NCBI GenBank assembly: GCA_963750165.1
Contig: CAVVPN010000003.1
Span: forward strand, 2,784,001 to 2,848,000
DNA from: an uncultured Gemmataceae bacterium
Lineage (GTDB): Bacteria; Planctomycetota; Planctomycetia; Gemmatales; Gemmataceae
Reading direction: 5' to 3'
Length of the DNA stretch: 64,000 nucleotides
Position numbers and translations under genes: made by a program. This document shows, in pieces, positions 14,976 to 55,051 of the stretch (positions are counted from its first letter, which is position 1; each line of letters starts with the position of its first letter). The notes under the pieces are model-generated. The model worked only from the letters and a program-made list of their open reading frames with translations, did not search any database and had not been told where the DNA came from.

Positions 14976-16100
14976 GTGCTGACTCCGCGAACGACCGTTT
15001 GTCAACTGCTGCACACCCTGAACGTCGGCGGCGCCGAAGTCCTGGCGGCGCGGATCGGCCGCCGCCTTCGCGACCGCTGTCGCTTCGTCTTCGCCTGCCT
15101 GGACGAGATCGGCACCCTCGGCCTTGAACTGCGCGACGAAGGGTTTCCCGTCGAGGTGATCGGCCGGCGGGCCGGGCTGGACTGGCGCTGCGGCCTGCGC
15201 CTGGCGGCGTTGCTCCGCCGCGAGCGCGTCGATCTCATCCACGCCCATCAGTACACGCCGTTCTTTTACAGTCTGTTGGCCCGGTTCCTGTACCGCCGGC
15301 CGCCGGTGCTGTTCACCGAGCACGGCCGGCACTTCCCGGACTACCCGCGGCCCAAACGGCGGGCCGGCAACCGCCTTCTGCTGGAACAGCGCGACCGCGT
15401 GGTCGGCGTCGGCCAGGCCGTCCGCCAGGCGCTGATCCACAACGAGGGTATTCCCGCCCGGCGCGTCGGCGTCATCTACAACGGCATCGACCTGGACGGC
15501 TTCGGCAACGGCGCTCACGACCGTGCCGCCGTCCGCCGCGACCTGGGCGTGGCCGCGGACGACTTTGTGATCCTGCTCGTGGCACGTCTGGACTACCTCA
15601 AGGACCATGCCACCGCCGTGCGGACCATTCAGCGCGTGGCCCAGTCCCGGCCGAACGCCAAATTGGTCCTGGTCGGCGAGGGGCCGGAGAAGGCCAGGAT
15701 CGAGGCGCTGGTCGCGCAGCAGCAGCTCGGCGCCCAGGTGCGCTTCCTGGGCCTGCGCAAGGATGTTGCCCGGCTGCTGCGCGGGGCGGACCTGTTCCTG
15801 CTCACCAGCATCAGCGAGGGCATCCCCCTGACGGTGATCGAGGCGATGGCCGCGGGGCTGCCCGTGGTGGCCACGCGCGTCGGCGGCCTGGCCGAAGTGG
15901 TGGCGGATGGCACGACGGGCTGCCTGGCCCCTTCGGGCGATGACGCTGCCCTGGCCGAGCAGGTGCTGCGGCTGGCGGACGAGCCCGCGTTGCGGCACCG
16001 CCTGGGCGAAGCGGGCCGGCAGCGGGCGGCGGGCCTGTTCTCGGAAGACCAGATGCACGCGGCTTACTTCCAGCTTTACAAGGACATGATCGATGGCTGA
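14976..16100 (+). CDS. GT4-family glycosyltransferase (EPS/PEP-CTERM-locus type)
   Basis: LLHTLNVGGAE, FTEHG, IYNGID, VARLDYLKDH, TSISEGIPLTVIEAMAAGLPVVATRVGG. GTG start after GGAG. Confidence 0.9.
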   Translation: MLTPRTTVCQLLHTLNVGGAEVLAARIGRRLRDRCRFVFACLDEIGTLGLELRDEGFPVEVIGRRAGLDWRCGLRLAALLRRERVDLIHAHQYTPFFYSLLARFLYRRPPVLFTEHGRHFPDYPRPKRRAGNRLLLEQRDRVVGVGQAVRQALIHNEGIPARRVGVIYNGIDLDGFGNGAHDRAAVRRDLGVAADDFVILLVARLDYLKDHATAVRTIQRVAQSRPNAKLVLVGEGPEKARIEALVAQQQLGAQVRFLGLRKDVARLLRGADLFLLTSISEGIPLTVIEAMAAGLPVVATRVGGLAEVVADGTTGCLAPSGDDAALAEQVLRLADEPALRHRLGEAGRQRAAGLFSEDQMHAAYFQLYKDMIDG

Positions 16101-17277
16101 CCAACCCCGGACCCAGCGGCCCGCGCTGCTCGTCTTCGCCGACGACTGGGGCCGGCATCCGTCCAGCTGCCAGCACCTGGTCGGCCATCTGCTCGAGCGC
16201 CGCCCCGTCCACTGGGTCAACACCATCGGCACGCGCACGCCGCGGCTCGACTGGGCCACCCTGCGCCGCAGCATGGGCAAGGCCCGTCAGTGGCTGCGGC
16301 GCCGGCCCGCGGCGGCCGGGGCGCTGCCCGCCAACCTTGCGGTGTTGAATCCGAAGATGTGGCCCTGGTTCGGTTCCGCCTTCGGCCGCGGGCTCAACCG
16401 GCGGCTGCTAACGCGGCAACTGGCGCCGCTGCTGCGCTCGCTTCCCGAGGCCCCGGTGGCCGTCACCACCATCCCGCTGGTCGCGGATCTGGTCGGCACT
16501 CTGCCCGTGCGCCGCTGGGTGTACTACTGCGTGGACGACTTCAGTCAGTGGCCCGGCCTGGATCAGCGGACCCTGGAGGACATGGAGGTCGAGCTGGTTG
16601 CGCGGGTCGATGACATCGTCGCCGTGAGCGAGCCGTTGCAGCAGCGCCTGGCCCGCATGGGCCGCTCGTCCCAGCTGCTGACCCACGGCGTCGAACTGGA
16701 CTGCTGGGCGCCGCCCACCCGGGCCGAGGCTGTTCCCGAACTGGACGGGCTGCCGCGGCCGCTCGTCGGCTTCTGGGGCGCCGTGGACCGGCGCATGGAC
16801 ACGGCCTTTGTGGAACGGTTGGCTGGCGACCTGCGCGAAGGGACCATCCTGCTGATCGGCCCCTCGGACGGCCACGACCCGGCCCTGGACCGTCTCGACC
16901 GCGTGCGGCGGCTCGGCGCGGTGCCGTTCGCGCGGCTGCCGGTGCTGGCGGCGGAGCTGGCGGTGCTGGTGATGCCCTATGCGGACCTGCCGGTCACCCG
17001 CGCCATGCAGCCGCTCAAACTGAAAGAGTACCTGGCCACCGGCAAGGCCGCCGTCGTCCGCGACCTGCCGGCCACGCGACCGTGGTCCGACTGCCTCGAC
17101 CTGGCGGCCTCGCCGGAGGTGTTCTCCCAGGCGGTGCGCCACCGCCTGGAGACGGGGTTGCCGGCGCATCAGCAAACGGCCCGCGGCCGCCTCGCTGACG
17201 AGGGCTGGGCCGCGAAGGCCCAGGCGTTCGAGCAAGTCCTTTTTCCCGCCCATGAGGCAGAGAGCAGGTCGGCATGA
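16093..17277 (+). CDS. GT-B fold glycosyltransferase
   Basis: VFADDWGRHPSSCQHL, VYYCVDDFS, LLTHGVE, MQPLKLKEYLATGK. Overlaps both neighbours (translational coupling). Confidence 0.85.
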   Translation: MADQPRTQRPALLVFADDWGRHPSSCQHLVGHLLERRPVHWVNTIGTRTPRLDWATLRRSMGKARQWLRRRPAAAGALPANLAVLNPKMWPWFGSAFGRGLNRRLLTRQLAPLLRSLPEAPVAVTTIPLVADLVGTLPVRRWVYYCVDDFSQWPGLDQRTLEDMEVELVARVDDIVAVSEPLQQRLARMGRSSQLLTHGVELDCWAPPTRAEAVPELDGLPRPLVGFWGAVDRRMDTAFVERLAGDLREGTILLIGPSDGHDPALDRLDRVRRLGAVPFARLPVLAAELAVLVMPYADLPVTRAMQPLKLKEYLATGKAAVVRDLPATRPWSDCLDLAASPEVFSQAVRHRLETGLPAHQQTARGRLADEGWAAKAQAFEQVLFPAHEAESRSA

Positions 17278-18476
17278 GGCAGCAACTCGAACGGCAGCGC
17301 CGGCCGCAACCCGGACGCCGCGGGGCGGTCGGCCCCGTGGTGCTGGACACCCGCGTCGTCACGGAGGCGGGCGGGGGGCCGGAGAAAACCATCCTCAGTT
17401 CGCCCCGCTTCTTCCGGCCCCACGGCTACGAGATGCTGTGCGCCTACATGCACCCCCCCGGCGACCCCGGCTTCGAGCAGTTGCGCCGCAAGGCGGCGGC
17501 CCTGGAAGCGCCGCTGTTCTCCGTGCCCGACCGCGGCGCGTGGGACTGGCGTGTGGTCTCGGAAATGCTGCGCATCTGCCGGCGCGAACGGGCCCGCATC
17601 TGGCACGGTCACGACTACAAAAGCAACGCCCTCGGCCTGCTGTTGACCCGCTTCTGGCCCATGCGCCTGGTGACGACGGTCCACGGTTGGGTGCGACAGA
17701 CGCGGCGCACGCCCCTGTATTACAAGATCGACCGGCTGTGTCTGCCGCGCTACGAGTCGGTGATCTGCGTCTCGGAGGACCTGCGCGAGCAGTGCCTGGC
17801 CAGCGGCGTCCCCGCCGAGCGCTGCGTGTTGATCGAAAACGGCATCGACCTGCAACAGTACGCCCGCTGCCGGTCGGTCGCGGAAGCCGGGCGGCGCCTC
17901 GAAGTGCCCGTCGGGCGGCAGGTGGTTGGCGCGGTCGGCCGGCTGTCACCGGAAAAGGGCTTCGACCTGTTGATCCGGGCCGTGCATGGCCTCCTGGCTG
18001 GCGGCCGGGACCTGGAACTGTGGATCGTCGGCGAGGGTGACGACCGGCCGCGCCTGGAGGCGCTCATCGCGGAGCTGGGCGCCGGCGACCGGATCCGGCT
18101 GCTGGGGTATCAGCCCGACCCGCGGGAACTGTACGAGGCCTGGGACGTGTTCGCCCTGAGCAGTCTGCGGGAGGGGCTGCCCAACGTGGTACTGGAGGCC
18201 CTGGCCCTGGAAGTGCCCGTGGTGGCGACGCGGGTCGCGGGCGTGCCGCGGTTGATCCACGATGGCGAGAACGGTCTGCTCGTGTCCCCCGGCTCGGCGG
18301 CGGAACTCGGCCAGGCCGTGGGCCGGTTGCTCGCGGACGACGCGCTCCGCCAGCGCCTGAGCCGGGCCGGCCGCCAGACCGTCGAGACGGGCTACAGTTT
18401 CGCCAGCCGCGTTGCGAAAATCGCCCGCCTCTATGACGCCTTGCTGGCGGGCGGCCCCAGCGGTCCGCCGTGTTGA
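17274..18476 (+). CDS. GT4-family glycosyltransferase
   Basis: GGGPEKTIL, HGHDYKSN, TTVHGW, VGRLSPEKG, SSLREGLPNVVLEALA. ATGA overlap with the upstream gene. Confidence 0.9.
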   Translation: MRQQLERQRRPQPGRRGAVGPVVLDTRVVTEAGGGPEKTILSSPRFFRPHGYEMLCAYMHPPGDPGFEQLRRKAAALEAPLFSVPDRGAWDWRVVSEMLRICRRERARIWHGHDYKSNALGLLLTRFWPMRLVTTVHGWVRQTRRTPLYYKIDRLCLPRYESVICVSEDLREQCLASGVPAERCVLIENGIDLQQYARCRSVAEAGRRLEVPVGRQVVGAVGRLSPEKGFDLLIRAVHGLLAGGRDLELWIVGEGDDRPRLEALIAELGAGDRIRLLGYQPDPRELYEAWDVFALSSLREGLPNVVLEALALEVPVVATRVAGVPRLIHDGENGLLVSPGSAAELGQAVGRLLADDALRQRLSRAGRQTVETGYSFASRVAKIARLYDALLAGGPSGPPC

Positions 18477-18506
18477 AGACATCGCACCAGGGAAAGGGGC
18501 TGAATC

Positions 18507-19589
18507 ATGGCCACCGTTGACGTTTCGACACCGCCGCCCGCTCCGCTGTCCATCCGGCTGCACCGCGGCCGCGACCTGGAGCACGGCATGGGCCGCTGGG
18601 CGGAATACGTGTCCCGAACGTCCTTCACGCCCCTGAGCCGGCACCCGGCCTGGCTGCACGTCCTGCGCGACGGGCTCGGCCACACGCCGTACTGCCTGGA
18701 GGCCGTGGCGGGCGACCGCACACGCGGCCTGCTGCCGCTGGCCGAGGTGGACAGCCTGCTCTTCGGACGCTTCCTTGTGAGCCTGCCCTACGTGAACCAC
18801 GGCGGCGTGCTGGCCGACGACGACGCCACGGCCGCCGCCCTGATTGACGCGGCGGTCAACCTGGCCGACGTGCTGGAGGTGCGTTATCTGGAACTGCGCC
18901 AGGGCGAAGCCATCGACCACCCGGCGCTGCCGCTGCGCATGTCCGGCAAGGTCCACATGCGCCGGCCGCTGCCGCCGACACCGGAATTACTCTGGGAAGA
19001 ACTCAACTGCAAGGTCCGCAACCAGGTCCGCAAGGCGCGCAAACACGAGTTGACCGTGGCCTGGGGTGGCGAAGAACTGCTCGGCGAATTTCACGCGGTC
19101 TTCAGCCGCAACATGCGCGACCTGGGCACGCCGACCTACGGCAAGGGGTTGTTCGCCAGCATTTTGCGGCAGTTCCCCGACCGGGCGGAACTGTGCGTGG
19201 TGCGGGCCGGCGCCGTGCCGGTGGCGTCCGCCCTGCTGACGCACGGCTGGGGCGTGACCGAGGTGCCCAGCGCCAGCGCCCTGCGGCAGTACAACGCCAC
19301 CTGCGCCAACATGCTGATGTACTGGCATCTGCTGGAGCGCGCCAGCCAGCGCGGCCAGTCCGTTTTCGACTTCGGCCGCTCCAGCCGGGACAGCAACACG
19401 TATCGGTTCAAGGACCAGTGGGGGGCCAAGGAGGCGCCGGCGGACTGGCTGTATCACCTGCGGATCGGCGAGATGTCGGCCATGCGTCCGGAGAACCCGC
19501 GCTACCAGCGCCTGATCCGCATGTGGCAGCGGTTGCCGGTGTGGCTGACGCGCCTGCTCGGGCCGCGCATCGTCCGCGGCATCCCCTGA
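18507..19589 (+). CDS. FemAB-like GNAT protein, exosortase/PEP-CTERM-system associated
   Basis: SLLFGRFLVSLPYVNHGG, KVRNQVRKA, NMRDLGTP, NMLMYWHLL, FDFGRS, FKDQWGA, PENPRYQ..IRMWQRLPV...LGPRIVRGIP. Confidence 0.88.
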   Translation: MATVDVSTPPPAPLSIRLHRGRDLEHGMGRWAEYVSRTSFTPLSRHPAWLHVLRDGLGHTPYCLEAVAGDRTRGLLPLAEVDSLLFGRFLVSLPYVNHGGVLADDDATAAALIDAAVNLADVLEVRYLELRQGEAIDHPALPLRMSGKVHMRRPLPPTPELLWEELNCKVRNQVRKARKHELTVAWGGEELLGEFHAVFSRNMRDLGTPTYGKGLFASILRQFPDRAELCVVRAGAVPVASALLTHGWGVTEVPSASALRQYNATCANMLMYWHLLERASQRGQSVFDFGRSSRDSNTYRFKDQWGAKEAPADWLYHLRIGEMSAMRPENPRYQRLIRMWQRLPVWLTRLLGPRIVRGIP

Positions 19590-19590
19590 A

Positions 19591-19788
19591 TGTCAACGGC
19601 GGTTGACAACACGGATGAGCCCGGCTGTAAACAATGGGCTGCGGAAATCAGGACGGGCCTGAACGAGCCGAAAAGTTTACACCGCCATCCGGAAGTGGAA
19701 TACCACTGTAAGCCGTTGATGTAGAGGACATTGCGAATGGAAACCAGAACATCAGCAGAAGCTCAGTCCGGTTGGCTCGGCGTTTGCT
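19591..19788 (+). promoter_or_regulatory. Enhancer-like palindrome, IHF-like site and sigma-54 promoter upstream of giant gene A
   Basis: TGTCAAC-N4-GTTGACA-N17-TGTAAAC (19591-19632), TAAGCCGTTGATG (19709-19721; IHF consensus YAANNNNTTGATW with one mismatch) and TTGGCTCGGCGTTTGCT (19772-19788). Confidence 0.78.
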
Positions 19789-19926: not shown

Positions 19927-19943
19927 TTGGCCCGCGCGTTGCG
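19927..19943 (+). promoter_or_regulatory. Second candidate sigma-54 -24/-12 box
   Basis: TTGGCCCGCGCGTTGCG with GG-N10-GC spacing. Confidence 0.45.
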
Positions 19944-20226: not shown

Positions 20227-23200
20227 GTGCTACATTCTCTGAATCGCGTGTGGTCCAAGCGGAAGAGCATGTTCCGGCGTCAAGGCGACGCAGTCACCCA
20301 GGCGCGCAAGCCGTTCCGCCCTGCCCTGGAAGCGCTCGAAGGCCGCGTCGTTCCCGCCTTCGCCATCCGGGCGACCGAGTTCGACAGCCTCAAGAACGTG
20401 GTCGCTTCGAGCACGCAAACCAGCCCGAGCGGCCCTGGCAGCGCCTTCAACGCCATCTTCACTCTGCCGGATTTCAGCATCACCATCGTCGGCAACAACT
20501 CGAACATCGGCTCCACCTACGCCGCCCACAGCACCACGATCAACATGCTGTACACCGGCCCGACCGGGGCCAACTCGGACAGCATTCTCATTGAGGTCCT
20601 GGGCGACAGCTACGTCACCCCCAGCGCTGGCCCGGCCCAAATCACCAGCAACGCCTCCCCCAGCACCTCCGGACTGCAGGCGAGCACTGTCACCATGACC
20701 AGCGGCGTGCTCAACGGCGACGTCGCGCTGTCGGGCACGCCAGGCACCACGCTGAACGGCCAGTTGGGGCAGACGATGGGGGCGGGCTCGATCGGTTCGG
20801 CGTCGAGCGTCCTGTCGCCCAACCCAACCGTGTCCGGTTCGGTCTTCACGCTCGCCAACCCGTTCACGTTCTACCAGACCTACACGTTCGGCGGGTTTAA
20901 CACCACCGGCCAGGCTGGTTCCATGTCGGCGGGCTCGGAGGTCGATGCCGTCCCCAACGCGAACAACCCGCACATCGCCATCGTCAAGTTGACCAACGGT
21001 ACCAACAATGATGACCCGCCCACCCCGGGTGTGCCGGACGGCCCCATCGTGATGGTGGGTAGCACGGTCACCTGGACCTACAACGTCACCAACCCGGGCA
21101 ACGAACCGATCGCCAACGTGAACGTCACCGATAACATCGCCGGGGTCAACCCACTGCCGGTGCTCTCGGGCAGCTTCAACGTCGGCGACACCAACGACAA
21201 CGGCCTGCTCGACCCCGGCGAGACCTGGGTGTACACCGCCACCGGCATCGCCACACTCGGCCAGTACAGCAACGTCGGCACCGTCACCGGCACCAGCACC
21301 ATCACCAACACCCCCGTCGCTTCCGATAACCCCGACCACTACTTCGGCGTTCCGGTCACCCCGACCATCACGACCCAGCAGACGCCGCTGACGGGCCCCG
21401 TCGGCACCTCGACCAACGACACGGCGATCGTCACCGGGTACTACCCGACCGGGACGGTCACGTTCAACCTGTACGACAACCCGAACGGCACCGGCACCTC
21501 GTTGTTCACCGACACCGAGCCGTTGGTCATCACCCCCGAGGAGCCACTGGTCGGGGTGGCGACCTCGACCGATTTTACGATCACTGCCCCCGGCACCTAC
21601 TACTGGGTGGCCACCTACAACGGCGACAACCTGAACAACAACCCGGTCACGAGCACGACGGACGGCGAGCCGGTGGTCGTCGCCACCCCGGCCATCAACA
21701 TCGTCAAGCTGACCAACGGCACCAACAACGATAGCCCGCCCGTCGCCGGCACGCCCGACGGCCCCATCGTGCCGGTCGGCAGCACCGTCACCTGGACCTA
21801 CAACGTCACCAACCCCGGCACGGAGCCGATCGCCAACGTCGCCGTCAGCGACAACATCGCGGGCGTCAACCCGACCCCGGTGCTCTCGGGCGGCTTCAAC
21901 GTCGGCGACGCCAACGACAACGGTCTGCTCGACCCCGGCGAGACCTGGGAGTTCACCGCCAGCGGCACGGCCACCGCCGGCCAGTACAGCAACATCGGCA
22001 CCGTCACCGGCACCAGCACCATCACCAACACGCCGGTCAGCGCCACCAATCCGGACCACTACTACGGCTACACGACGAATATCAACATCGTCAAGTTGAC
22101 CAACGGCACCAACAACGACAACCCGCCCGTCGCGGGCGTGCCCGACGGCCCAACGGTGCCCGTGGGCAGCACCGTCACCTGGACCTACAACGTCACCACC
22201 ACGGGCAACGTGCCACTCTCGAGCGTCGCCGTTAGCGACAACATCGCGGGCGTCAACCCGACCCCGGTGCTCTCGGGCGGCTTCAACGTCGGCGACACCA
22301 ACCAGGACGGCCTGCTCGAGGCCGGTGAGACCTGGGAGTTCACCGCCAGCGGCACGGCCATCGCCGGCCAGTACAGCAACATCGGCACCGCCACCGGCAC
22401 CCCGAGCACCCCGAGCGGCACCCCCATCCCCGGCGCCCCGCCGCAGACCTCCACCAACCCGGACCACTACTACGGCACGCTGTCGCTGGGCGACTTCGTC
22501 TGGAACGACGTGAACGCCAACGGCATCCAGGACAGCAGCGACCTGACCAGCAACGGCATCAACGGCGTGCTCGTCGATCTCGAGAACAGCGGCGGCACCG
22601 TCATCGCCACCACCACCACGGGCAATAACCCGGTGGGCGGCGCCCCCGGCTACTACCAGTTCAGCGGTCTGCTGCAGGGCACCTACACCGTCGTCATCGA
22701 CAGCAGCAACTTCGCCAGCGGCGGCGCCCTGGCCAGCTACTCGGCCACGCCGAGCATGGTTGCCGGCAGCACCACCGCCAACGACAGCAACGGCAGCCCG
22801 GCTTCTGTCACGCTGACCACGGCCAACGACGAGACCATCGACTTCGGCTACTTCAAGCCGGGCATCAACATCGTCAAGTTGACCAACGGCACCAACAACG
22901 ACAACCCGCCCGTGGCGGGCACCCCTGACGGCCCGACGGTGCCGGTGGGCTCGACGGTGACCTGGACCTACAACGTCACCAACCCCACGGGCGTGGCGCT
23001 GAGCAGCGTCAGCGTCAGCGACAACATCGCGGGCGTCAACCCGACCCCCGTCCTCTCGGGCGGCTTCAACGTCGGCGACACCAACCACGACGGCCTGCTG
23101 GAAATGGGCGAGACCTGGGTGTTCACCGCCACAGGCACCGCCATCGCCGGCCAGTACAGCAACATCGGCACCGCCACGGGCACGCCGGTGACGCCGACCG

Positions 23201-40850: not shown

Positions 40851-41046
40851 TGTCAACTCTGGTTGACAGCCCCACAACACACTGCTGTAAACCGCGCGCT
40901 TTGCCAGACGGATGGGCTCGGTTCGGCGGCGGCATCGAGCCGGTGATCGGAAAAGTCGATGAAACGCAACTTGTTCATAAATAAGGGATTGTAGCTTACA
41001 AGTTGACCCGTGGAGGAAGGCCAGCCCCGTTGGCCCGACGTTTGCT
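40851..41046 (+). promoter_or_regulatory. Enhancer-like palindrome, IHF-like site and sigma-54 promoter upstream of the deacetylase/PAP-CTERM unit
   Basis: TGTCAAC-N4-GTTGACA-N17-TGTAAAC (40851-40892), CAACTTGTTCATA (40967-40979) and TTGGCCCGACGTTTGCT (41030-41046). Confidence 0.8.
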
Positions 41047-41282: not shown

Positions 41283-42311
41283 TTGACCACGCGCATCGTT
41301 CCCGACCCGGATCAACAACTCGCCAGCGCCGCCGCGCCGGCGGTGAGTCCGTTGCGGGCCATCCTGAGCTTCGACGTGGAGGAGCACTTCCGCATCGAGG
41401 CGGCGGCGGGCCTGGCCATCAACCCGGGACTGCGGGCGCAATACTGCGAACGCCTGGTGCCCTCGACCCAGTGGCTGCTCGATCAGCTGGAGCAGGCCCA
41501 GATTCGGGCGACGTTCTTCATCGTGGGCCAGATCGCGCGGGACAACCCGACCCTGGTGCGGGCCATCCACGAGGCCGGCCACGAGGTGGCGAGCCACGGC
41601 TGGGACCACCAGCGCGTCCTGAACCTGACGCCGGCGACGTTCCGCGCGGACATCCGCCAGAGCAAGGACGCCCTGGAGCAGGTCACGGGCGAAGCGGTGG
41701 TCGGCTACCGGGCGCCGACGTTCAGCGTCATGCGCCAGACGGCCTGGGCCCTGGACGTGCTGGTGGAACAGGGCATCACCTACGACTCCTCGATCTATCC
41801 GGTGCGGCACGACCGCTACGGCGTGCCGGGGGCGCCGCGGGGCCCCTTCCGCGCCCGCGGCGAACAGCACGAAATCCTCGAAATCCCACCACTGACCTGG
41901 CGCGTCCTGGGGACGAACGTTCCGGTCGGCGGCGGCGGTTACTTCCGGCTGCTACCGCTGGCCTTGCTGCAGCGTGCCCTGGCCCAGGTGCGTGACGGCT
42001 GCGACCCGCCGGTGGCCATGCTGTACTTCCACCCCTGGGAGTTCGACCCGGGCCAACCGCGGCTGCCCCTGGGCCGCCTGAGCGCGTTCCGCACCTACGT
42101 GGGCATTTACCGCAGCCGCGCCCGGCTGCAGCCACTGCTGCGGGGCCATCACTGGGCCCGGGCCGTGGACGTGGCCGAGCAACTCGACAAACAGTGGGCA
42201 CTGTTGCCGACGTTTGACGTCACCGCCCGCGGGGAGCAGAATGGGCAAGCCGTCTCTCCCGTTCGCCCGGCGGAGTTCTGGATGCCTGTTCCTTGCCCGG
42301 AAGGAGGGTAA
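41283..42311 (+). CDS. Polysaccharide deacetylase, exosortase/PEP-CTERM-locus type
   Basis: LSFDVEEHF, ATFFIVG, GHEVASHGWDH, GYRAPTFS, YDSSIYPVRHDRYG, GGGGYFRLLP, YFHPWEFDPGQP. TTG start chosen after GAGGAG (start uncertain). Confidence 0.9.
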   Translation: MTTRIVPDPDQQLASAAAPAVSPLRAILSFDVEEHFRIEAAAGLAINPGLRAQYCERLVPSTQWLLDQLEQAQIRATFFIVGQIARDNPTLVRAIHEAGHEVASHGWDHQRVLNLTPATFRADIRQSKDALEQVTGEAVVGYRAPTFSVMRQTAWALDVLVEQGITYDSSIYPVRHDRYGVPGAPRGPFRARGEQHEILEIPPLTWRVLGTNVPVGGGGYFRLLPLALLQRALAQVRDGCDPPVAMLYFHPWEFDPGQPRLPLGRLSAFRTYVGIYRSRARLQPLLRGHHWARAVDVAEQLDKQWALLPTFDVTARGEQNGQAVSPVRPAEFWMPVPCPEGG

Positions 42312-46300: not shown

Positions 46301-47703
46301 AGAAGTTGATCGACGAGAAGGGCGGCAGCCCGCAGCAACTGGCCGAGGCGCGCCGCCTGCTGGCGCTGGTCCTGGCCTCCGGCGCGGGGCACGAGCAGCG
46401 GCAGAAGGCGCTGGAGTTGCTCGGCGTGCTTGGCGACGGGCCGGAGACGGCCGGCGCCGACCTGAATCCGGCGGACCTGCGGGCCAGGGTTCTGGTGCTG
46501 GCCAAGGCGCAGAACCCGCGGCAACGGCGGCAGGCGGTCGCCCTGCTGGAAAACCTGCAGCGGTCGGAGCCGCTGACGCCGGACGAGCAGTTCCTGCTCG
46601 CCCAGCTGTACGACACGGTCGGCCAGGGCGACAAGGCGCAGCAGGAACTGCTCGGGCTGCTGACCCGGATGGGCGAGAAGCTGGACAAGAGCCCGCGCCG
46701 TCAGGAGGCCCTGGAGAAACAGTTCGCCCACTACCTGAACTACGCCGCCAACAAAATGCTGCAGCGCGGCGCCGTCGAGCAGGCCCAGGCGTGGCTCGAC
46801 CGGCTCGAGAAACTGGAGCCGAAGACCTTCCGCACACTTGCCCTCCGCGCCCGCCTGCTGGACAAGCAGGGCCAGGCCGCGGAGGTGGTGCCGGCGCTCG
46901 TCGCCCTGGCTCAGAAGGACGACGCCCAGATTCTGCCCGTCGCTGGCGTGCTCGAGTCGGTCGGCGCCCTCAACGAGGCCGAACGGCTGTACACCCGCTA
47001 CGGCGAGCGCACCAAGAAGGCGGAAGCCGTGCTGCTGCGGGCCGGCTTCCTTGGCCGCCAGAAGCGCATGCGCGAGGCGCTGGCCCTGTGCGAGCAGGCG
47101 TGGAAGACCTGCCGGCCGGAAGATGTCGCGTCTACCCTTGTGCTGATCCTGTATCAGAACCGGAAGGAGACGGAGCACCTGGCCGGAGCGGCGGAGCGGC
47201 TGGCGAAGGTCGTCGCCGCCAACCCGGACAAGACCTGGCTGGCCCAGCAACTGGCGGCGGTGTACCGGTTGCAGGAGAACTACGACGGCATGATCGCGCT
47301 GTATCGGGACATCCTCCGGCGCGACCCCAAGGACACGGTGACACTGAACAATCTCGCCTGGCTGCTGGCGCTGAGCAAGCACGACGGCGCCGAGGCGCTG
47401 CAGATGATCGACCGGGCCATCGAACTGGACGGCCCCCAGGCCGCGCTGCTCGATACCCGCGCCGTGGCGCTGCTGGCCAAGGGGGACGCTGCGCGGGCCG
47501 TGAAGGACCTGGAAGAGGCCATCACCGAAACGCCCACCGCACTGCGCTACTTCCACCTGGCCCAGGTACACGACCGGGCCAAGAATCGGAAAGCGGCCGC
47601 CGACGCCTGGCGGCGCGGGAAAAATCTGGGCCTGACCGAGGACACGGTGGATGTGCTGGAGCGGCCGACCTTCCAGCGCCTGCGAGCCGAACTGGATCGT
47701 TAA
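43370..47703 (+). CDS. Large membrane-anchored TPR protein 1 (~1440 aa; PrsT-like position; frameshift near 45370)
   Basis: N-terminal TM then HGFQVRRNA, TPRs throughout, C-terminal LNNLAWLLA..LLDTRAV. One missing G joins WREL|ARKHPND. Confidence 0.85.
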
Positions 47704-47904
47704 CCGAAGAGCCGCCCGATCGTCGTTGCGGTTGTCGCGAATGACCCCGTACTCCGTGCGCGCGGCAAATTGTGGTCTGCACCGGGAACGTGAAGAGAAG
47801 AGGCTGTGCGGTGAGTCGTCTGGGCTCCTCAGGCGCGGAGATCCTGTGGAGTGGGCTGGTAACAATGGGTTCGCCCCCAATCATTTTTATTGAACAGGAC
47901 TGTC

Positions 47905-48867
47905 ATGGCCGTCTGCCTGGTAACGGGAGGTGCAGGGTTCATCGGCTCTCACCTGGTGGAAGCGCTGCTCGACCGTGGACACCTGGTCCGTGTGCTGGAT
48001 AACTTCAGCACGGGTTGCCTGGAGAACCTGAGCACCGTGGAGGATCACATCGAGTTGATCCGCGGCTCGGTGGCGGACTTCGACGTGGTGCGCGAGGCGA
48101 CCGCGGACGCGGAGTACGTGTTCCACCTGGCGGCGCCGACACCGGGCGTGCTGAGCCTGGCGGACCTGGTGGGCACCCACCACTCCGGGGCGACCGGGAC
48201 CCTGCATGTGCTGATCGCCGCCCGCGAGGCCAACGTCCGCCGCGTCGTGTACGCCTCCAGTTCGCACGTCTACGGCCAGGCCATTGGGCTGCCGCGCCGC
48301 GAGGATGAGCCGACGCAACCGTTGAGCCCTTACGGCGTGGCCAAGCTCACGGGCGAGCAGCAGTGCCTGGGCTTCAACCGGTTGTACGGTCTGGAGACGG
48401 TGCGGCTGCGCTACTTCAACGTGTTCGGACCGCGGCAGTCGGCGGGCAGCCCATACGCGGGGTCGCTGCGGCAGGTGCTGCGGCAAATGCTCACGGGCTG
48501 CCGGCCCGTGGTGCCCGTCGGCGTCAACTGCCGCCAGGACCTGATCGCCGTGGACGACGCCGTGTACGCCACCCTGCTGGCTGTCTCCACGCCGCGCGCC
48601 GCGGGCAAGGTATACAATATCGCCAGCGGTCGCCCCACGACGCCGCTGGAGTTGGTTGCTGCTCTGAACGACATCCTGGGGATCCACCTGGCGCCGGTGG
48701 AAACCTTTTTCGGGCCGCCCGAGGATGTTTGCCATCTGGCAAATCCCCACAAGGCCGAAGTTGAGCTAGGCTTTTGCGCCGGCACCAGTTTGGAGAAGGG
48801 CCTCCGCGAGTGCGTCGAGTATTACGCGCTGCGGCACGAAGGGGCGGCCCCCACGCTGACTGGGTGA
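47905..48867 (+). CDS. NAD-dependent epimerase/dehydratase (extended SDR)
   Basis: LVTGGAGFIGSHL, LDNFSTG, YASSS, SPYGVAK (YxxxK), LRYFNVFGPRQ. Confidence 0.9.
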   Translation: MAVCLVTGGAGFIGSHLVEALLDRGHLVRVLDNFSTGCLENLSTVEDHIELIRGSVADFDVVREATADAEYVFHLAAPTPGVLSLADLVGTHHSGATGTLHVLIAAREANVRRVVYASSSHVYGQAIGLPRREDEPTQPLSPYGVAKLTGEQQCLGFNRLYGLETVRLRYFNVFGPRQSAGSPYAGSLRQVLRQMLTGCRPVVPVGVNCRQDLIAVDDAVYATLLAVSTPRAAGKVYNIASGRPTTPLELVAALNDILGIHLAPVETFFGPPEDVCHLANPHKAEVELGFCAGTSLEKGLRECVEYYALRHEGAAPTLTG

Positions 48868-49051: not shown

Positions 49052-50077
49052 ATGTTTGGCCCTCTCCACATTTGGGATTGGCTCCGCGATCTGGGCAGGC
49101 GGGCGGCGGCGCTGCCCCTGGCGGTGCGCCTGGGCGGCCTCGTGCTGCTGGCGCTGCTGTGGGCGTACCTGCCGACGGCGGAGGAACTGCTGCGGCGCTG
49201 GGGCGAGTCGCAGTATTCGCACGGCTACCTGGTGCCCGTGTTCGCGCTGTACCTGCTGTGGGCGCGGCGAGCGCTGATCGCCGGCGGGCCGGGACAGCCC
49301 AGCGCCTGGGGGCTGGCGTTCCTGGTCGCGGGGCTGGCGTTGCACGGCTTCGGCACCTTCATCTTCCTCGACTGGCTGACCGCTGCGGCCATCATCCCCT
49401 GCCTGGCCGGGCTGGCACTGCTGACCGGCGGCTGGCGCGCCCTGCACTGGACGTGGCCGGCGCTGTGCTTCCTGGTGTTCATGATCCCGCTGCCCTACAA
49501 GCTGGAAATCGCCCTGGCGCATCCGCTGCAGCGCGTCGCCACCCTGGCGAGCACCTTCGTGCTGCAAACGCTCGGCTTCATCGCCTTCTCGCAGGGCAAC
49601 CTCATCCGCCTGGGCGACGTGTACCTCAACATCATCGAGGCCTGCAGCGGTCTGAAAATGCTCCTCACCTTCTTCGCCCTGTCCACCGCGGTGGTGCTGG
49701 TGACCCAGCGGCCGCCGCTGGAGAAAATCCTCCTGTTCCTGAGCGCCGTGCCCATTGCCCTGATCGTCAACATCCTCCGCATCGTGGCGACGGCCATCCT
49801 GCACAAGACGACCACCCGGGAACTGGCCGAGCACGTCTTTCATGACGTGGCCGGCTACCTGATGCCGCTGGTCGCCCTGCTGCTGTTGTGGGCGGAGGTG
49901 CGCCTCCTGGACTGGGTGCTCGTCCCTGGAAGCAAGCGCCACGTCGAGGAACCCGCTGCGGAACTCGGCTTCAACGCCTGGGGGCTGCCGATGGCGCCAA
50001 CGCCGGCGGCGCCACCGGCGGCGCCGGCCGCGCCCGCTATCACGGCGCCGAACAATGCCGCGTCGAGTCCGACCTGA
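49052..50077 (+). CDS. Exosortase (EpsH/Xrt family)
   Basis: Multi-TM protein with YSHGYLVP, FMIPLP, IIEACSGLK (catalytic Cys), VNILRI (Arg) and FHDVAG (His). Confidence 0.93.
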   Translation: MFGPLHIWDWLRDLGRRAAALPLAVRLGGLVLLALLWAYLPTAEELLRRWGESQYSHGYLVPVFALYLLWARRALIAGGPGQPSAWGLAFLVAGLALHGFGTFIFLDWLTAAAIIPCLAGLALLTGGWRALHWTWPALCFLVFMIPLPYKLEIALAHPLQRVATLASTFVLQTLGFIAFSQGNLIRLGDVYLNIIEACSGLKMLLTFFALSTAVVLVTQRPPLEKILLFLSAVPIALIVNILRIVATAILHKTTTRELAEHVFHDVAGYLMPLVALLLLWAEVRLLDWVLVPGSKRHVEEPAAELGFNAWGLPMAPTPAAPPAAPAAPAITAPNNAASSPT

Positions 50078-50129: not shown

Positions 50130-50780
50130 ATGAAAAGTATCGTGTGGGTGCTGGGGGCCCTCGTTCTGGTGGTGGGCTACGGGGTGGCCGAGGGACTGTG
50201 GACCGACCGCTGGGGTCTGTCCGGCGAGCTGGAGCAGGCGAGCGCCCGGGTCAGCCGGGTGCCGCGGACGTTTGGGGACTGGGAGGGCCGCGACTTTGAA
50301 CTCGACCCCGACCAGATCCGGCAGGCGCAAATCATCAGCTACGTCCAGCGCCGCTACGTCCACCGCCAGAAGGGGACCGAGATCACGGTGCTGCTGGTCT
50401 GCGGCCGTCCCGGTCCCACGGCGCTGCACAGCCCCAACATCTGCTACGAGGGGGCGGGCTACACCCCGGCGTTCGAGCAGGAGCGCAAAGCATTCACCAT
50501 CGCGGGCCTGGCCGCGCCAGCCGCGTTCCACATGGTCCAGTATCAGAAGTCCGGGCCGGCGCCCGAGCCGCTGCTCATCTACTGGTCCTGGAACGCCACC
50601 GGGGACTGGCAGGTGCCCGACAACCCGCGCTTCCATTTCGGGCGCCACCGGGCCCTGTACAAGCTCTACGTCATTCGGCAGCTGACCAAGGTGGACGAGT
50701 CGTTGCAGGATGACCCGTCGCCGGAGTTCATCGGCCAGTTCCTGCCGGAAGTGCACAAGGCGCTGTTTCAAAAAGATTAA
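50130..50780 (+). CDS. Exosortase-associated EpsI-like protein
   Basis: Follows the exosortase. N-terminal TM, GLWTDRWG, VPRTFGDWEGRD, LLVCGRPG..LHSPNICYEGAGY, LYKLYVIR. Confidence 0.82.
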   Translation: MKSIVWVLGALVLVVGYGVAEGLWTDRWGLSGELEQASARVSRVPRTFGDWEGRDFELDPDQIRQAQIISYVQRRYVHRQKGTEITVLLVCGRPGPTALHSPNICYEGAGYTPAFEQERKAFTIAGLAAPAAFHMVQYQKSGPAPEPLLIYWSWNATGDWQVPDNPRFHFGRHRALYKLYVIRQLTKVDESLQDDPSPEFIGQFLPEVHKALFQKD

Positions 50781-50828
50781 CGGTTGGGGCCCGAGGGCGG
50801 GCTCAACCCTGGTAAGCGAGTGGCAGCC

Positions 50829-53800
50829 ATGAAGCAATTGTGGGCAGCCCTGACGGGCAACCGGCGGGTGAACGTCAAGGCCTTTTTGATCCTGATCGTG
50901 ACCGCGGTCGTGCTGGGCGGCACGGTCTACTTCGTCCACGGCTGGCAAGTGCGGCGGAACGCCCACGTGCTGCTGGAGGAGGCCGACCGGGCGGAGCACG
51001 AGGGCCAGTCGGAAGCGGCCCTTGAGCACCTGGAAAACTACCTGGGACTGGAGCCGCACGACACGGACGCCCGGGCGAAGTACGGTCTGCTGTTGGCCAA
51101 GTTGGCCAAGACCCGCCACGAAGTGGAGCGGGCGTTCCTGACGCTCGAAGACGTGGTGCGCCGCGACGGCAAGCGCCAGGACGCGCGCCACGAAGCCGCC
51201 CGGCTTGGCCTCCGTCTCGGCCGCTTCGCCGAGGCCAAGGCCCACCTGGAGAAGCTGCTGACGGCAACGCCCGACGACCTGGACCTGCTGCACGAACTCG
51301 GCCGCGCCGAGGCCGGGCTGCACAACTACAAGACGGCCGCGGAGCTTTACGGCAAGGTGATGAAGCTGGCCCCCAAACGAACCGACTTCGCCCTGGAATA
51401 CGCCGGGCTGCTGCGGGTGGGCCAGAAAATCCCGGAGCTGGGGGACCAGATCATCGAGGACATGGTGCTGCGCGACCCGCGCGCGCAGGAGACGCGCCTC
51501 AAGGCGGCGGCGTATTTCCGGCAGTTCGGGCAGCCGAACGCGGCCTGGGTCCACCTCCGCTTCGCCCTGACCGAACTGGGCACGCCGACGGCGGACCTGC
51601 TGGCGCTGGCCGGCGAAGTGGCGCTGTTGCGCGGCGATGCCAAGGAGGCCGGCAAGCACTTCGAGGAGGGCCGCCGGCGCTTTCCGAAAGACGCCCGCAT
51701 GGGCCAGGGGCTGGCCCGGCTGGCGCTGGCCGGCGGCGACCGGCAGAAGGCCCTGTCGCACCTGGATCTGCGCTCCCTGCCCGAAGACCCCGATGAGCAG
51801 TGGGCGCTGGCCAACCTCCTGCTCGATGCCGGGGCGCTGGCCGAGGTGCGCGAGCTGAGCCGGCGGTTGGAAAAGGCTGGCCGCCGCTCCCTGGTGGACC
51901 TGCTGGAGACGCGGCTGCTGATGAAGGAGGAGCGCTGGGGAGACGCCAGCAAACAGCTGGAGAAACTGCGCGGCACCCGGCTGGCCCCGGGGCTCGCCAA
52001 GCAGGTGCCGCTGTTGCAGGCCGAATGCTATGAGCGCCTGGCCAATCCGGATCAGCGGCTGGCGGCCCTGAGCCGCGCCCTGGAGCTGGACCCCTTCTGG
52101 CCGGCGGCCCGCCGCGCCCACGCGGTGGCGCTGGCCGCGGTCGGCCAGTTCGACCGGGCGCTGACCGAGTATCGCAAGCTGGCGGACCAGTTCCCCGAGG
52201 TGCGCGGCGAACTGGCCCGGCTGCTGCTGGCCCGCACCATACGGTTGCCGCGCGAGCAGCGCGACTGGTCGGAGGTCGAAAAGCTGGTGAACCAGGTAAA
52301 CGCCGGGGAGAAAGCCACACTGGCCGCGCGGCTGCTGCGGATCGACTTCCTGGCCGCCCGGGAGCAGTGGGACGAGGCCCAGAAGCTCACCGAGGCGATG
52401 CGCGACGAGGATCCCAGGCAGACCCGTCCCTGGCTGCTGCTGATCGGCCTGGCCGAACGCCGCAAGCAGACCGAGGCCATCCCGAAGCTGGTGGACGAGG
52501 CCGAGCGCCAGGCCGGCAAGAACATCTACTGGACGCTGGCGCGCGCCAGCCACGCCCTGCTACTGGGCCGCGACCGGGCCAAAGAGTTGTTGCCGAAACT
52601 GCTGCCGGCCGTGGAGCAGTTCCAGGGGCCGGAGCGGGTGAACCTGCTGGCGGGGTTGGCCCGAGGCTTTGCCGCCGCCGGAGACGCCGCGCAGGCCGAC
52701 CGCCTCTGGTTCCAGGTCGCCGAGCTGGAGCCCGATAACCTGGCCGTGCGCTTCGTGCTGCTCGAAGCGGCCCTGCGCGACGGCCGGACGGACGCGGTGC
52801 GGCGGCTGGTCAAGCAACTGCGGCGGATCGAAGGCGGCGATGGGGCGTTGACGGCTTACGGCGAAGCGGTGCTGCGGTTGCGGCTCGCCGTGGACGGCGA
52901 CCGCAAGGCGTTGGCGGAGGCCCGGCCCTGGCTGGCGAAGGCGGCGGCGCTGCGGCCGTCGTGGCGCAGGTGCTCTTGGCCGAGGCGACCGCCTTCGACA
53001 TGGAGGGCAAGAAGGACCGGGCGCTGGAGAAGTACAAGGCGGCGCTGGAGCGCGGCACGGTCAACCTGCGGGCATGGCAACGGTGCCTGCGGTTGATGGC
53101 CGAAAAGGGCCAGTACGCCGAGGCCTCCGCGCTGCTGCGCAAACAGCCGGAGCGGTTCCGGGAGACGCCAGAACTGGGCCGACTGGACGCTCAGCTGACG
53201 CTGTTGAACGCCGACGCGGCCGGCCAGACCCCGGAGGCCGCCCGCCGCGAAGCGCTGGTGCTGGCGCAAGGCCGTGACCGCCGACTCCAGGGAGGCGCGC
53301 GATTTCCTGTGGCTGGGCCAGGTGGCCGCCCTGGCGGGCGAGAAACAGGAGGCGGAGAAGGCGTTCCGCCGGGCGTGCGAGTTGAACGACCAGGCGCCGG
53401 AAAACTGGGCGCTGCTGGTGTTGTACCTGGTCGGCACCGACCGCAAGGCCGCCGAGGCGGAGCTGGAGCGGGCCAGGACGAAGCTGCCCGCCGACAAGGC
53501 GGCGCTGGCCCTGGCCCCCTGCCTGGAGGCGCTGGGTAAAACGGACAAGGCCGAGGAGCAATATCTCAAGCTCCTCAATGCCCAGCCGGAGGATCCAGGC
53601 CGGATGCAGACCACGGCCGCCTTCTATGCCCGCACCGGGCAGCCGGCCAAGGCGGAGCCGCTGCTGCGCCAGGTGCTGGCGCCGGGCACCCGGGCCTCGC
53701 CGGCCGCAGTCGTGGTGGCGCGGCGTGCCCTGGCCCTGGTCCTGGCGCTGCAGGGCGGCTACCCACGGCTGCTTGAAGCCCAGAACCTCGTGAAGCAGAA

Positions 53801-55051
53801 CATCAAGGCGAACGGCGAGACCCCGGCGGATCGACAGATCATCGCCCTGGTGCTGGCAACGCACCCGGCCCACCGCAAGGAGGCCATCCGCCAGGTGGAG
53901 GGGCTGGCCCCGGCGGGGGCGACGCTGCCGGCCGAGGCCCGCTACCTGCTGGCGCAGTTGCACGAGGCCGACGGCAACTGGAGCAAGGCCGAGGCCTACC
54001 TGCGCGAGCTGCTGGAGATGGACGAGCGGAACGCGCAATATCTGACGCGGCTGGTCACCGGTCTGCTGCGCGACGACCAGGCGAAGGAGGCGGAGAAGTG
54101 GCTGCAGAAGTTGGCCGAGGTCGCTCCGGACAAACTGGAGACGACCGCTCTGCGGTTCATGACGCTTCGCGCCCTGAAGAAAACCAAGGAGGCGACCACC
54201 CTGGTCCGGAACTACGCCCGGGGGAAGGACGCCCGGCTGGACCTGGTGGGGCGCTGGTTCGAGCTGCTGGACCTGCAGGCGGAGGCTGAAAAGGCTTTGC
54301 GGGACTTCGTGCTTGCCTCGAAGAGCCCGGACACCGTGCTGCTGCTCACCCAGTATCTGGCGCGGCAGAAGCGGCTCGACGAGGCGCTGCAACTGTGCGA
54401 CGGGGCCTGGAAGACCTGCGCGCCCGAGGCAGTGGCGGCGGCCAGCGTGACGGCACTGCGGGTTGGCAAGGGGGCGCCGCCCAGCAGCAGCGTGTGGAGC
54501 GCGCGATCCTCAAGGCGATCCAGGACCACCCCAGGTCGAACCTGCTGGTGACCTTCCTGGCGGAAGTGCAGGATCTGCGCGGCAAGCACGCGGAGGCCAT
54601 CGACGTTTACCTTCGGCTGCTCAAGCAGAGCAACGACAACCCGGTGGTGTTGAACAACCTGGCCTTCCTGCTGGCCATCACCGACCGCGACCCGGCGGAA
54701 GCGCTACGGCTGGTGAACCTAGCGATCGACAAGGCGGGACCGCTGGCGGACCTGCTCGACACGCGGGCGGTGGTGTATTTGAAGCGCAAGCAGGGCGAAC
54801 CGGCCGTGCAGGACATGCAGCAGGCCGTCGCCCAGCGCGAGTCGGCCCCCTTCTACGTCCACCTGGCCCAGGCTCGCGCCCTGAAGGGGGACCGGGCTGG
54901 GGCGGCGCAGGCGCTGCAGAAGGCGTTTGCCGAGCGGTTCCACCTGAGCGAGCTGCACGCGCTGGAACAGCCGGAACTGCGGCAGCTGGCGGCGACGCTC
55001 GGGCTGGAGAAGGAGCTGCGCGACACGCTTGACGGCAAGGCGCGGCCGTAG
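50829..55051 (+). CDS. Large membrane-anchored TPR protein 2 (~1400 aa; frameshifts near 52963, 53268 and 54476)
   Basis: Paralog of TPR 1: RRVNVK-TM-HGWQVRRNA and C-terminal LNNLAFLLA..LLDTRAVVY. Four ORF-track fragments join through short indels. Confidence 0.82.

Follow-up and report, generated by a model that had tools for sequence, protein, structure and literature searches.

Introduction

Why do two proteins of several thousand residues, each opening with an LExR leader, lie in the middle of an exosortase/exopolysaccharide (EPS) gene cluster? The question arises in a 64,000-nucleotide stretch, here called the window, from an uncultured Gemmataceae bacterium. A first-pass annotation had read the cluster as a dedicated glycoprotein-fibre or biofilm system whose glycosyltransferases (GTs) may decorate these giants. 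In the parts of the literature available to us, exosortase-processed PEP-CTERM proteins are described as holding EPS to the cell and as needed for flocs; the mechanism by which they bind EPS and cells to one another is treated as an open question in the accessible portions of PMC9850573 and PMC12188702.

Results

Gene calls and profile matches agree on 13 genes, all on the + strand and in the order first annotated, with both LExR-leader giants inside the cluster (Table 1). The locus has the ordinary backbone of an exosortase/EPS matrix locus, its FemAB, deacetylase and exosortase models scoring above cut-off, and among 194 genomes of the order 102 have its femAB gene. The GC content of the giants (0.64-0.72) matches that of the window. 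The two large TPR genes are only 31-38% identical to each other, and a third paralogue lies on contig C12. The best NCBIfam match of all TPR pieces is TIGR02917 (PrsT), below cut-off, with the genes in frameshifted pieces. Relatives carry an intact TPR protein of 1372-1464 aa at the corresponding place; the frameshifts are probably assembly errors.

Table 1. Features of the locus, in window coordinates
Feature	Position	Strand	Evidence or remark
18-bp palindromic enhancer-like site before GT1	14651..14668	+	motif; outside the span first annotated
sigma54-type -24/-12 site before GT1	14828..14842	+	motif match
GT4 glycosyltransferase (GT1)	14976..16100	+	best TIGR03088, below cut-off
TuaH-like glycosyltransferase	16093..17277	+	profile match
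GT4 glycosyltransferase (GT3)	17274..18476	+	profile match
FemAB-like protein, XrtA/PEP-CTERM system	18507..19589	+	TIGR03019 369 bits, cut-off 260
18-bp palindromic enhancer-like site before giant A	19591..19608	+	motif
sigma54-type site before giant A	19773..19787	+	second one at 19928-19942
Giant A, 3875 aa	20269..31896	+	LExR leader, jelly-roll domain, repeat stalk, S53 protease, low-complexity tail
Giant A first mature domain	20359..20952	+	53% identical to PAP-CTERM protein
Giant A unnamed helical domain	29479..30018	+	AF2 pLDDT 95
Giant A S53 sedolisin/kumamolisin-type protease domain	30034..31143	+	catalytic Glu, Asp, Ser and oxyanion Asp aligned
Giant B, 2874 aa	32128..40752	+	tandem paralogue of A by sequence; shorter stalk; choice-of-anchor-A/ice-binding-like domain PF20597
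Giant B first mature domain	32218..32811	+	97% identical to A's
Giant B S53 protease domain	38842..39951	+	87% identical to A's
18-bp palindromic enhancer-like site before deacetylase/PAP-CTERM genes	40851..40868	+	motif
sigma54-type site before deacetylase	41031..41045	+	motif match
XrtA-system polysaccharide deacetylase	41283..42311	+	TIGR03006 298 bits, cut-off 276; ORF opens at 41163
Small PAP-CTERM protein, 260 aa	42458..43240	+	signal peptide, 200-aa jelly-roll domain, PAP motif, hydrophobic helix, basic tail
Large TPR protein 1	43370..47703	+	frameshifted near 45.4 kb, 2 pieces
NAD-dependent sugar epimerase/dehydratase	47890..48867	+	profile match
Exosortase, EpsH family	49052..50077	+	TIGR02602 145 bits vs 106; PF09721 206 vs 26
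EpsI-like protein	50130..50780	+	PF11984 above cut-off
Large TPR protein 2	50829..55051	+	at least 3 frameshifted pieces

The cluster is probably not one operon, because the giants are set off by gaps of 679, 231 and 530 bp and sigma54-type sites precede GT1, giant A and the deacetylase gene. Of the roughly 4,100 genes whose upstream gap is free, only 6 are preceded by a sigma54 site combined with a TGTAAA/TTTACA box, and five of these six, giant A included, belong to the two EPS clusters (the second is described below); the enrichment, p 3e-11, is post hoc, the motif having been defined from these very sites. Giant B has no such motif of its own, scans for sigma70 promoters and terminators gave nothing above shuffled sequences, and the motif is not a mark of PEP-CTERM genes in this genome (0 of 20 with a free gap). 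That the giants belong to the exosortase/EPS locus is supported, since giant A has the promoter motif of the locus and both giants share a domain with its PEP-CTERM substrate.

How close is the locus to the known XrtA type? In common with the PEP-CTERM/exosortase system, as set out in the available text of Haft et al. 2006 (PMC1569441), it has an EpsH-family exosortase, EpsI, a FemAB-like protein, a deacetylase, GT4 enzymes, TPR proteins, a PEP-CTERM substrate and linked genes of EPS synthesis and export. The models for the XrtA-subtype FemAB (TIGR03019) and deacetylase (TIGR03006) are both matched above cut-off. Also shared is a sigma54 site preceded by a box that ends in TTTACA, as judged against the verbal description of the motif by Haft et al., although the palindrome has 18 bp here and 17 bp in their motif (PMC1569441, available text). 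On the other hand, the exosortase falls below the cut-off of the exosortase A model (TIGR03109, 141 vs 208 bits), PrsK and PrsR do not exceed theirs (at best 115 bits against 300 and 434 against 503, in a genome 93% complete and with many frameshifts), and the TPR proteins, unlike those of the XrtA type, have about 1,400 aa and an N-terminal hydrophobic stretch. Moreover, in the accessible part of PMC1569441 the DNA motif is reported only from Proteobacteria and only before PEP-CTERM genes, whereas in this genome it stands ahead of EPS operons and of an LExR giant, and no cognate LExR partner is described there.

The window has, as first annotated, no Wzy, Wza, Wzc, priming GT, PrsK or PrsR among the ORFs scanned. 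This had been taken to indicate a dedicated system, a conclusion we do not retain. On the same contig, 43-91 kb upstream, lie a Wzc-type kinase gene (TIGR01007 above cut-off), a priming-GT-like gene, an ABC exporter, a second exosortase with EpsI, and a ligase/Wzy-like gene; Wza-family matches occur at seven other places in the genome. In relatives G051 and G111 some genes of the two halves lie next to each other. The two clusters are likely one split regulon, and a separate system is not supported by the lack of export genes in the window.

Judged by their sequences, giants A and B are tandem paralogues, with DNA 96.4% identical over 4.3 kb and 82% over the last 3.2 kb. They are not an assembly duplicate, since in the second stalk and the protease third codon positions hold an excess of the differences between them. 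In giant A the stalk consists of DUF7507, SdrD_B, Big_3_5 and DUF11 repeats, followed by two unnamed 200-aa domains; its ice-binding-like solenoid was identified by 29% identity to that of giant B. For the helical domain the fold search reached Z 4.0 at best and Foldseek gave nothing at E<=0.001, which does not in itself make it a new fold; the best ESM Atlas score, 0.89, is a lead only. The predicted protease domain aligns with kumamolisin (E 1.7e-22) and contains, by this alignment, the Glu-Asp-Ser triad and oxyanion Asp of sedolisin/kumamolisin (S53) proteases, but the giants have no S53 prodomain match and their S53 domain is embedded near the end of a protein of 3-4 thousand residues. As a possible C-terminal cell anchor the giants have a weakly hydrophobic stretch (mean 1.35-1.37) with basic residues behind it, a feature missing in the minimal long forms P0044, P0045, P0069 and P0073.

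The repeats (SdrD_B x4, DUF7507, DUF11, Big_3_5) are those of fibrillar-adhesin stalks, and together with the choice-of-anchor-A-like solenoid of giant B they recall SdrC/SdrD (MSCRAMM)-type adhesins and choice-of-anchor proteins. The giants depart from these proteins in several ways: an LExR leader takes the place of the signal peptide, there is neither an LPXTG nor a PEP-CTERM anchor, a protease lies close to the C-terminus, and the first domain is a paralogue of a neighbouring free subunit. The LExR pattern occurs in 73 ORFs of the genome; neither PF07595 (Planc_extracel) nor NF012209 (LEPR-XLL) matches the giants' leader, which we take to be of LExR type from the shared pattern.

The small PAP-CTERM protein has the anatomy of an exosortase substrate: signal peptide, PEP-type motif, helix and basic tail. 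Its family has PEP or PAP, alternating in one alignment; TIGR02595 misses the locus protein itself and matches 12 of 36 family members at E<=0.1. Like the PepA gene of Zoogloea/Aquincola (NF033554), which in the available text of PMC9850573 is RpoN-dependent with a matrix role, it is a small PEP-CTERM gene directly upstream of a TPR gene. The sequence family differs: the PepA model matches 2 of 36 members, at best with 24.6 bits against a cut-off of 80.

The first mature domain of both giants matches this small protein at 53% identity (E 5e-62), and the genome holds exactly three copies of the domain, in the two giants and the small protein. A jelly-roll sandwich is predicted for it, and glycan-binding modules match this fold best (Z 8.2, a value that implies no more than a similar arrangement; rmsd 3.6 A over 140 aligned residues); most matches are carbohydrate-binding (SGBP-B, CBM4, CBM61, PA14). 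Foldseek returned only matches of low TM-score and the best ESM Atlas score, 0.87, is a lead only. The best 50 fold matches include no pilin or TasA, which leaves a likeness to either admissible.

Does the pairing recur? We call small and long proteins with this domain family 1. The domain stands directly behind the LExR leader in all 12 long forms with a visible start, and there it begins in register with the mature start of the small protein. Small and long forms adjoin in locus L026, occur in one genome in G111, and come from the same source, with the same contig inferred, for P0026/P0043 and P0035/P0044; G051 (68% complete) has a small form without a nearby partner. A quick tree of 72 rows was followed by a careful one with 17 rows dropped (near-duplicates, fragments, three long branches and giant B). 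All eight long forms lie in a set of 12 rows (96/91), away from their own partners; P0001 and the small form of L026 belong to a set made up entirely of small forms (95/90). Four small forms nest among the long ones (3 changes), so that the latter do not make a single clade. Family 1 is rare: at E 1e-8 it was found in 6 genomes, three of them weakly, out of 267 of the order, and in none of 400 other genomes of the phylum.

A second PEP-CTERM family, unrelated to the first in sequence (profile comparison probability 0.1%), is paired in the same way. Its profile, made from outside sequences, matches 2 of 61,815 ORFs of this genome (E 1.6e-24 and 1.2e-22; reversed control 0.97), namely a PEP-CTERM gene and an LExR-RHS gene directly behind it. 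Across three families, the cognate LExR gene directly follows the PEP-CTERM gene in all five assessable loci, one of them in this genome. Second-family partners are only 21-25% identical and the cargo varies (S53 or M10 protease, RHS); in the tree the long forms lie on one side of a branch (79/91) and the two subtrees mirror each other. The partner match at L091 is weak (E 2e-4), and seven small-form loci have no partner within about 9 kb. The pair on C12, with RHS cargo (counted as family 3 below), is a stand-alone two-gene unit without EPS genes among its called neighbours, which suggests that the two proteins are connected with each other and not with the sugar. In this genome 2 of 30 candidate PEP-CTERM ORFs and 3 of 73 LExR ORFs are paired; two further adjacent pairs (C3:2972655 with C3:2973507, C11:1523816 with C11:1522857) have no detectable common domain. 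The first domain of P0205 resembled a different PEP-CTERM family by eye, but the search returned no match and this likeness was rejected.

Discussion

What could the shared domain do? Our tentative reading, which we hold at slightly less than an even chance, is that it docks long cargo proteins onto assemblies of exosortase-released subunits. In its favour stand the common domain, its constant place directly after the LExR leader, the common promoter motif and the return of the pair in two unrelated PEP-CTERM families. A sigma54 activator would induce giant A and the small subunit jointly with the EPS genes. The small subunit would be exported by Sec and cut by the exosortase, and the giants would leave by an LExR-dependent route. 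With the leader removed both proteins would begin at the same strand, and the two forms could join as a major subunit and a cargo-bearing minor subunit, the long repeat stalk displaying protease and adhesive domains from the exopolysaccharide matrix. Against docking, the two forms use different export signals, few PEP-CTERM and LExR ORFs of this genome are paired, many small forms have no partner close by, the long forms of family 1 are not one clade, giant B has no promoter motif of its own, and mirrored trees would follow from linkage alone too. A wider version seems to us rather unlikely: that PEP-CTERM proteins are in general subunits of exosortase-released fibres or lattices, loaded with LExR-leader cargo by a planctomycete rule in which a cognate-subunit first mature domain caps or joins the polymer and displays a protease, adhesin or RHS cage on a long stalk. 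If true, it would supply PEP-CTERM proteins with a structural mechanism in floc formation and settle where the LExR leader is cleaved.

Fibres of a major subunit and a cargo-bearing minor subunit are familiar from chaperone-usher FimA/FimH, sortase pili and Bacillus TasA/TapA, where likewise a small subunit gene and a larger adhesin gene beside it share a paralogous domain. The present locus, in contrast, lacks an usher, a chaperone and a class C sortase, its subunit-like domain lies at the N-terminus, and polymerisation is a proposal.

The predicted glycan-binding-like fold fits a lectin as well as docking. The two proteins might share a ligand with no direct contact, the small one cross-linking the cell's own EPS near the cell, while in the giants this module would be the adhesive tip, distal to the cell, of a fibrillar adhesin. 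Adhesins are usually built in this way, with the binding domain N-terminal to an SdrD_B/DUF11 stalk; most fold matches are carbohydrate-binding, the family-1 pair sits in an EPS regulon, and PepA raises bound EPS (PMC9850573, available text). We nevertheless consider this reading unlikely: the fold score implies a common arrangement only, family 3 is a stand-alone pair with RHS cargo, and a lectin module has no need of the mature N-terminus in every long form. It is also possible, though we think it quite improbable, that domains were shuffled in 'choice-of-anchor' style with no functional partnership, a PEP-CTERM gene having been duplicated beside an LExR gene, the copy having swapped its signal peptide for an LExR leader, and the pair being kept by linkage or moved as a block. 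In favour of shuffling, the available text of Haft et al. 2006 (PMC1569441) has homologous pairs with and without PEP-CTERM, some small forms group inside the long ones, and family 1 is rare. The first-pass annotation had held that absence of the giants from orthologous loci, together with a lack of co-expression, would indicate chance insertion, and this is half borne out: no giant follows femAB in the loci of 22 relatives (20 loci were picked from the 102 matches for long contigs, with about 16 kb downstream covered), but the giants track the PEP-CTERM family and not femAB. Shuffling alone sits poorly with partners that, at 21-25% identity, have stayed adjacent in three families and have trees that mirror each other, with the same rule in two unrelated families, and with the regulon's promoter before giant A.

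Least probable of all, in our view very much so, is a self-contained glycoprotein-fibre system in which the three GTs glycosylate the giants directly. The giants do contain 22-24% Thr+Ser, and indirect glycosylation is possible because the upstream cluster has an O-glycosylation-ligase-like gene (TIGR03097, 124 bits, below the cut-off of 188). However, the best model for GT1 and GT3 is the EPS-type TIGR03088 (229 and 148 bits), the adhesin O-GTs SdgA/SdgB/GtfA giving only 42-66 bits, the GTs are kept beside femAB in relatives without a giant there, and Wzc and a priming GT belong to the same regulon.

We found no description of the pairing of PEP-CTERM and LExR-leader proteins in the full-text literature searched, which was mostly non-subscription. 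With this promoter motif the PEP-CTERM sigma54 regulon is no longer limited to Proteobacteria, and the in-register starts predict the cleavage point of the planctomycete LExR leader. The small/long pair offers a direct handle, two 200-residue domains, on the role of PEP-CTERM proteins. If the long form docks on the small form, PEP-CTERM proteins would form assemblies.

Results

In both giants the first mature domain is homologous to the small PAP-CTERM protein of the locus (53% identity, E 5e-62), a relation overlooked by the first-pass annotation. The domain occurs three times genome-wide and has no Pfam or NCBIfam name. Its AF2 model is a predicted all-beta sandwich (pLDDT 84). In structure comparison it comes closest to glycan-binding jelly rolls, at Z 8.2, which may reflect no more than a common arrangement. 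Nearly all of its forty near-length relatives are small PEP/PAP-CTERM proteins. In the long forms, which begin with this domain and carry other cargo behind it, the domain lies directly behind the leader in 12 of 12 cases with a visible start, giants included; three further long forms, P0071, P0073 and P0079, have their starts cut off and are omitted from this count. The cargo includes S53 in the window's giants and an M10 protease in P0041 and P0079; in P0045 and P0069 it is a helical domain only. In L026 the small gene lies next to the long one, in the relative G111 both occur in the same genome, and in two other cases they very probably share a contig. In trees the long forms group together, apart from their own partners, with four small forms nested among them. 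This first family is rare: among 267 genomes from the order 6 gave a match, a strong one in three of them, and none did among 400 other genomes of the phylum. Metagenome matches to the small protein (L015-L037) are in 22 of 23 cases gene-sized contigs of 1.1-1.6 kb, 20 coming from one dataset, a pattern that might fit an abundant single-gene transcript.

A related PEP-CTERM subfamily supplies the first domain of the LExR protein P0203 (E 8e-15; profile probability 96% to the first family). We also find cognate pairs in a second family, reached via proteins that share the helical domain and unrelated to the first by profile (probability 0.1%). At E<0.001 a profile built from five outside LExR proteins matched just two of the genome's 61,815 ORFs, namely the C12 pair of the table, and a larger outside profile gave E 1.6e-24 and 1.2e-22 for this pair versus 0.97 for reversed ORFs. 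Its LExR protein is frameshifted into two ORFs. The second family was matched in 11 of 351 genomes of the class. The domain begins no more than 2 residues from the leader motif in 6/6 long genome ORFs, and in all five loci with intact upstream DNA the preceding gene, on the same strand and 164-528 bp away, encodes a PEP-CTERM-type protein that belongs to this family too, one partner being weak (E 2e-4); the sixth long locus ends at a contig end, its genome having a small form elsewhere. Partners share 21-25% identity. In the tree a branch (79/91) separates the long forms from the small ones, and the two subtrees are mirror images of one another. Three long forms carry RHS as cargo, and others carry SdrD_B stalks. 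Seven small-form loci have no cognate long gene nearby. Since the five long forms are paired and these seven loci are not, long forms come with a small partner whereas small forms can stand alone, the pattern predicted when a main subunit is joined by an optional cargo subunit. Separately, a 5,261-aa LExR ORF has a PEP-CTERM gene of another family directly behind it, no shared domain being detected between them; that gene has two identical relatives (63%).

The two giants, A and B, are paralogues in tandem that resemble each other much more over their 5' halves than over their 3' halves. Their shared domains differ by 6 non-synonymous codons and 1 synonymous codon, numbers too small for a claim of selection. 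We read this pattern as recent conversion or module swapping. The leader lacks a hydrophobic core and matches neither PF07595 nor NF012209. Catalytic residues are present in the predicted S53 domain; further S53 domains occur in a 3,094-aa ORF (70% identity to that of the giants) and in two other long ORFs (42-49%). Because PEP-CTERM is absent, the giants are probably not exosortase substrates. The unnamed helical domain (180 aa, pLDDT 95), with no fold match in structure comparison, occurs in 43 long proteins, often at the extreme C-terminus or just before a protease, and is a candidate anchor or export signal. A second SecA_DEAD gene, which is frameshifted, is a candidate component of the route by which LExR proteins are exported; it is like the T1SS-related module of PMC4452313, whose accessible text does not name the substrates.

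Coordinates and composition of the features discussed
Feature	Location	Remarks
Upstream EPS cluster	C3:2,708,000-2,755,700	Wzc-type kinase, priming-GT-like gene, Stp1-like GT, amidotransferases, TIGR03097-like ligase, ABC exporter
Second exosortase	within C3:2,708,000-2,755,700	EpsI-like neighbour
First-family long forms		P0041-45, P0069, P0074, P0159, L010, L026
Giants, N to C		30-residue basic LExR leader; 198-residue first domain; repeat stalk (DUF7507, SdrD_B, Big_3_5, DUF11); ice-binding-like solenoid; helical domain; S53 protease; low-complexity tail with weakly hydrophobic stretch
Shared domain, A; B	window 20359-20952; 32218-32811
Helical domain	window 29479-30018; 38290-38829
S53-bearing ORF	C3:3456318-3465602	3,094 aa
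Second SecA_DEAD gene	C3:1539900-1541103
Second cognate pair (L077)	C12:748236-755822	PEP-CTERM gene (C12:754935-755822), LExR gene with same domain and RHS-repeat body directly behind
LExR ORF and PEP-CTERM gene	C3:2972655-2989292	relatives of the latter at C12:111922, C12:555417
hpnC-hpnD-hpnE	window 10798-14512 (-)	squalene genes
UpxY/NusG-type antiterminator	L047:18189-18758; L050:1866-2450	G051, G111
Gene directly after TPR2	window 55141-56108 (-)	frameshifted
Subtilase (PF00082)	window 59658-60956 (+)
Palindrome	C11:2234267	upstream of PEP-CTERM gene C11:2233402-2234058

The window covers C3:2784001-2848000 in a genome of 9.6 Mb (12 contigs, 93% complete), and all 13 genes from GT1 to TPR2 were recovered there, co-oriented and in the order claimed. 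FemAB, deacetylase and exosortase score above their curated cut-offs. For GT1 and GT3 the nearest model is TIGR03088, a GT of the XrtA system, though both stay under its cut-off. EPS genes reported as absent from the window lie 43-91 kb before GT1. The genome holds five exosortase loci and Wza-family matches at seven other places, and genome-wide neither PrsK nor PrsR exceeds its cut-off. The backbone is thus common, since 102 of 194 genomes from the order have FemAB (TIGR03019), the EPS genes lie upstream, and orthologues from both halves are contiguous in the relatives G051 and G111. The giants, described earlier as embedded in the cluster, do stand there in this genome, and no giant was found behind femAB in 20 fetched loci, G051 or G111; several femAB loci hold a PEP-CTERM gene of another family and a TPR gene at that place. 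At the position that the giants occupy here, G051 and G111 have an antiterminator gene, flanked by femAB and the PEP-CTERM gene. Squalene genes run divergently from GT1, hpnD and hpnE appearing frameshifted. The giants' relatives bear the database names Pirellulales and Planctomycetaceae, in agreement with the planctomycete assignment of the first-pass annotation; two G111 loci (L013, L014) are labelled Alcaligenaceae, yet genome search puts G111 in the window's own family, so that the bin is probably mislabelled.

Both TPR genes are frameshifted. Indel errors are the likely cause, because relatives have an intact TPR of 1372-1464 aa at the same place and, of 4,861 same-strand neighbours genome-wide, 442 show an out-of-frame overlap. 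At 31-38% identity the two are old paralogues; a third lies on C12. The product of the gene after TPR2 has an N-terminus that we take to be prepilin-like.

Upstream of GT1, giant A and the deacetylase gene alike there is a palindrome of 18 bp (TGT-N12-ACA type) and a sigma54 site of the -24/-12 kind. Among the ~4,100 genes that have a free gap upstream, only 6 combine a sigma54 site with TGTAAA/TTTACA within 200 bp: the three just named, the exosortase and the ABC permease of the upstream cluster, and an unrelated gene. At up to 2 mismatches the palindrome has 13 genome matches, of which 6 fall within the two EPS clusters and 1 lies ahead of a further PEP-CTERM gene. The enrichment is post hoc because the motif came from these sites, although 3 of the 7 matches played no part in defining it. 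The palindrome on C11 has no strict sigma54 match. The shared site and box make co-regulation of giant A and the EPS genes likely; giant B lacks a site of its own and may be read through from giant A. The motif resembles Haft's motif 1 and 2, which the accessible part of PMC1569441 reports for Proteobacteria only.

Discussion

Homology, domain position, linkage and promoter motif are established directly. As far as the accessible text of the sources goes, PEP-CTERM proteins and exosortases bind EPS to cells and are required for flocs or biofilm, the mechanism being left open (PMC9850573, PMC12188702, bioRxiv 10.64898/2025.12.21.693542). The "planctosome" proposal (PMC6461901), in the part accessible, invokes cohesin-dockerin docking, a principle different from docking through a cognate domain, and in PMC12078418 PEP-CTERM appears only in a reference. 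Full-text searches, largely of open-access papers, gave no description of cognate PEP-CTERM/LExR pairing. The locus belongs to a known kind of system, and the pairing is, as far as we could find, an undescribed variant.

How could the pairing arise? Both forms might simply bind the same EPS, and the jelly-roll matches may be set beside this somewhat unlikely reading. That domains were shuffled and then kept by linkage is unlikely. A direct glycosylation system, with GT genes in the same cluster, seems quite improbable. We tentatively favour docking, as suggested by the sequence relations. The small protein would be released and form assemblies outside the cell, the giants would dock onto these through their cognate domain, and the docked giants would present their protease and adhesive domains on a stalk.
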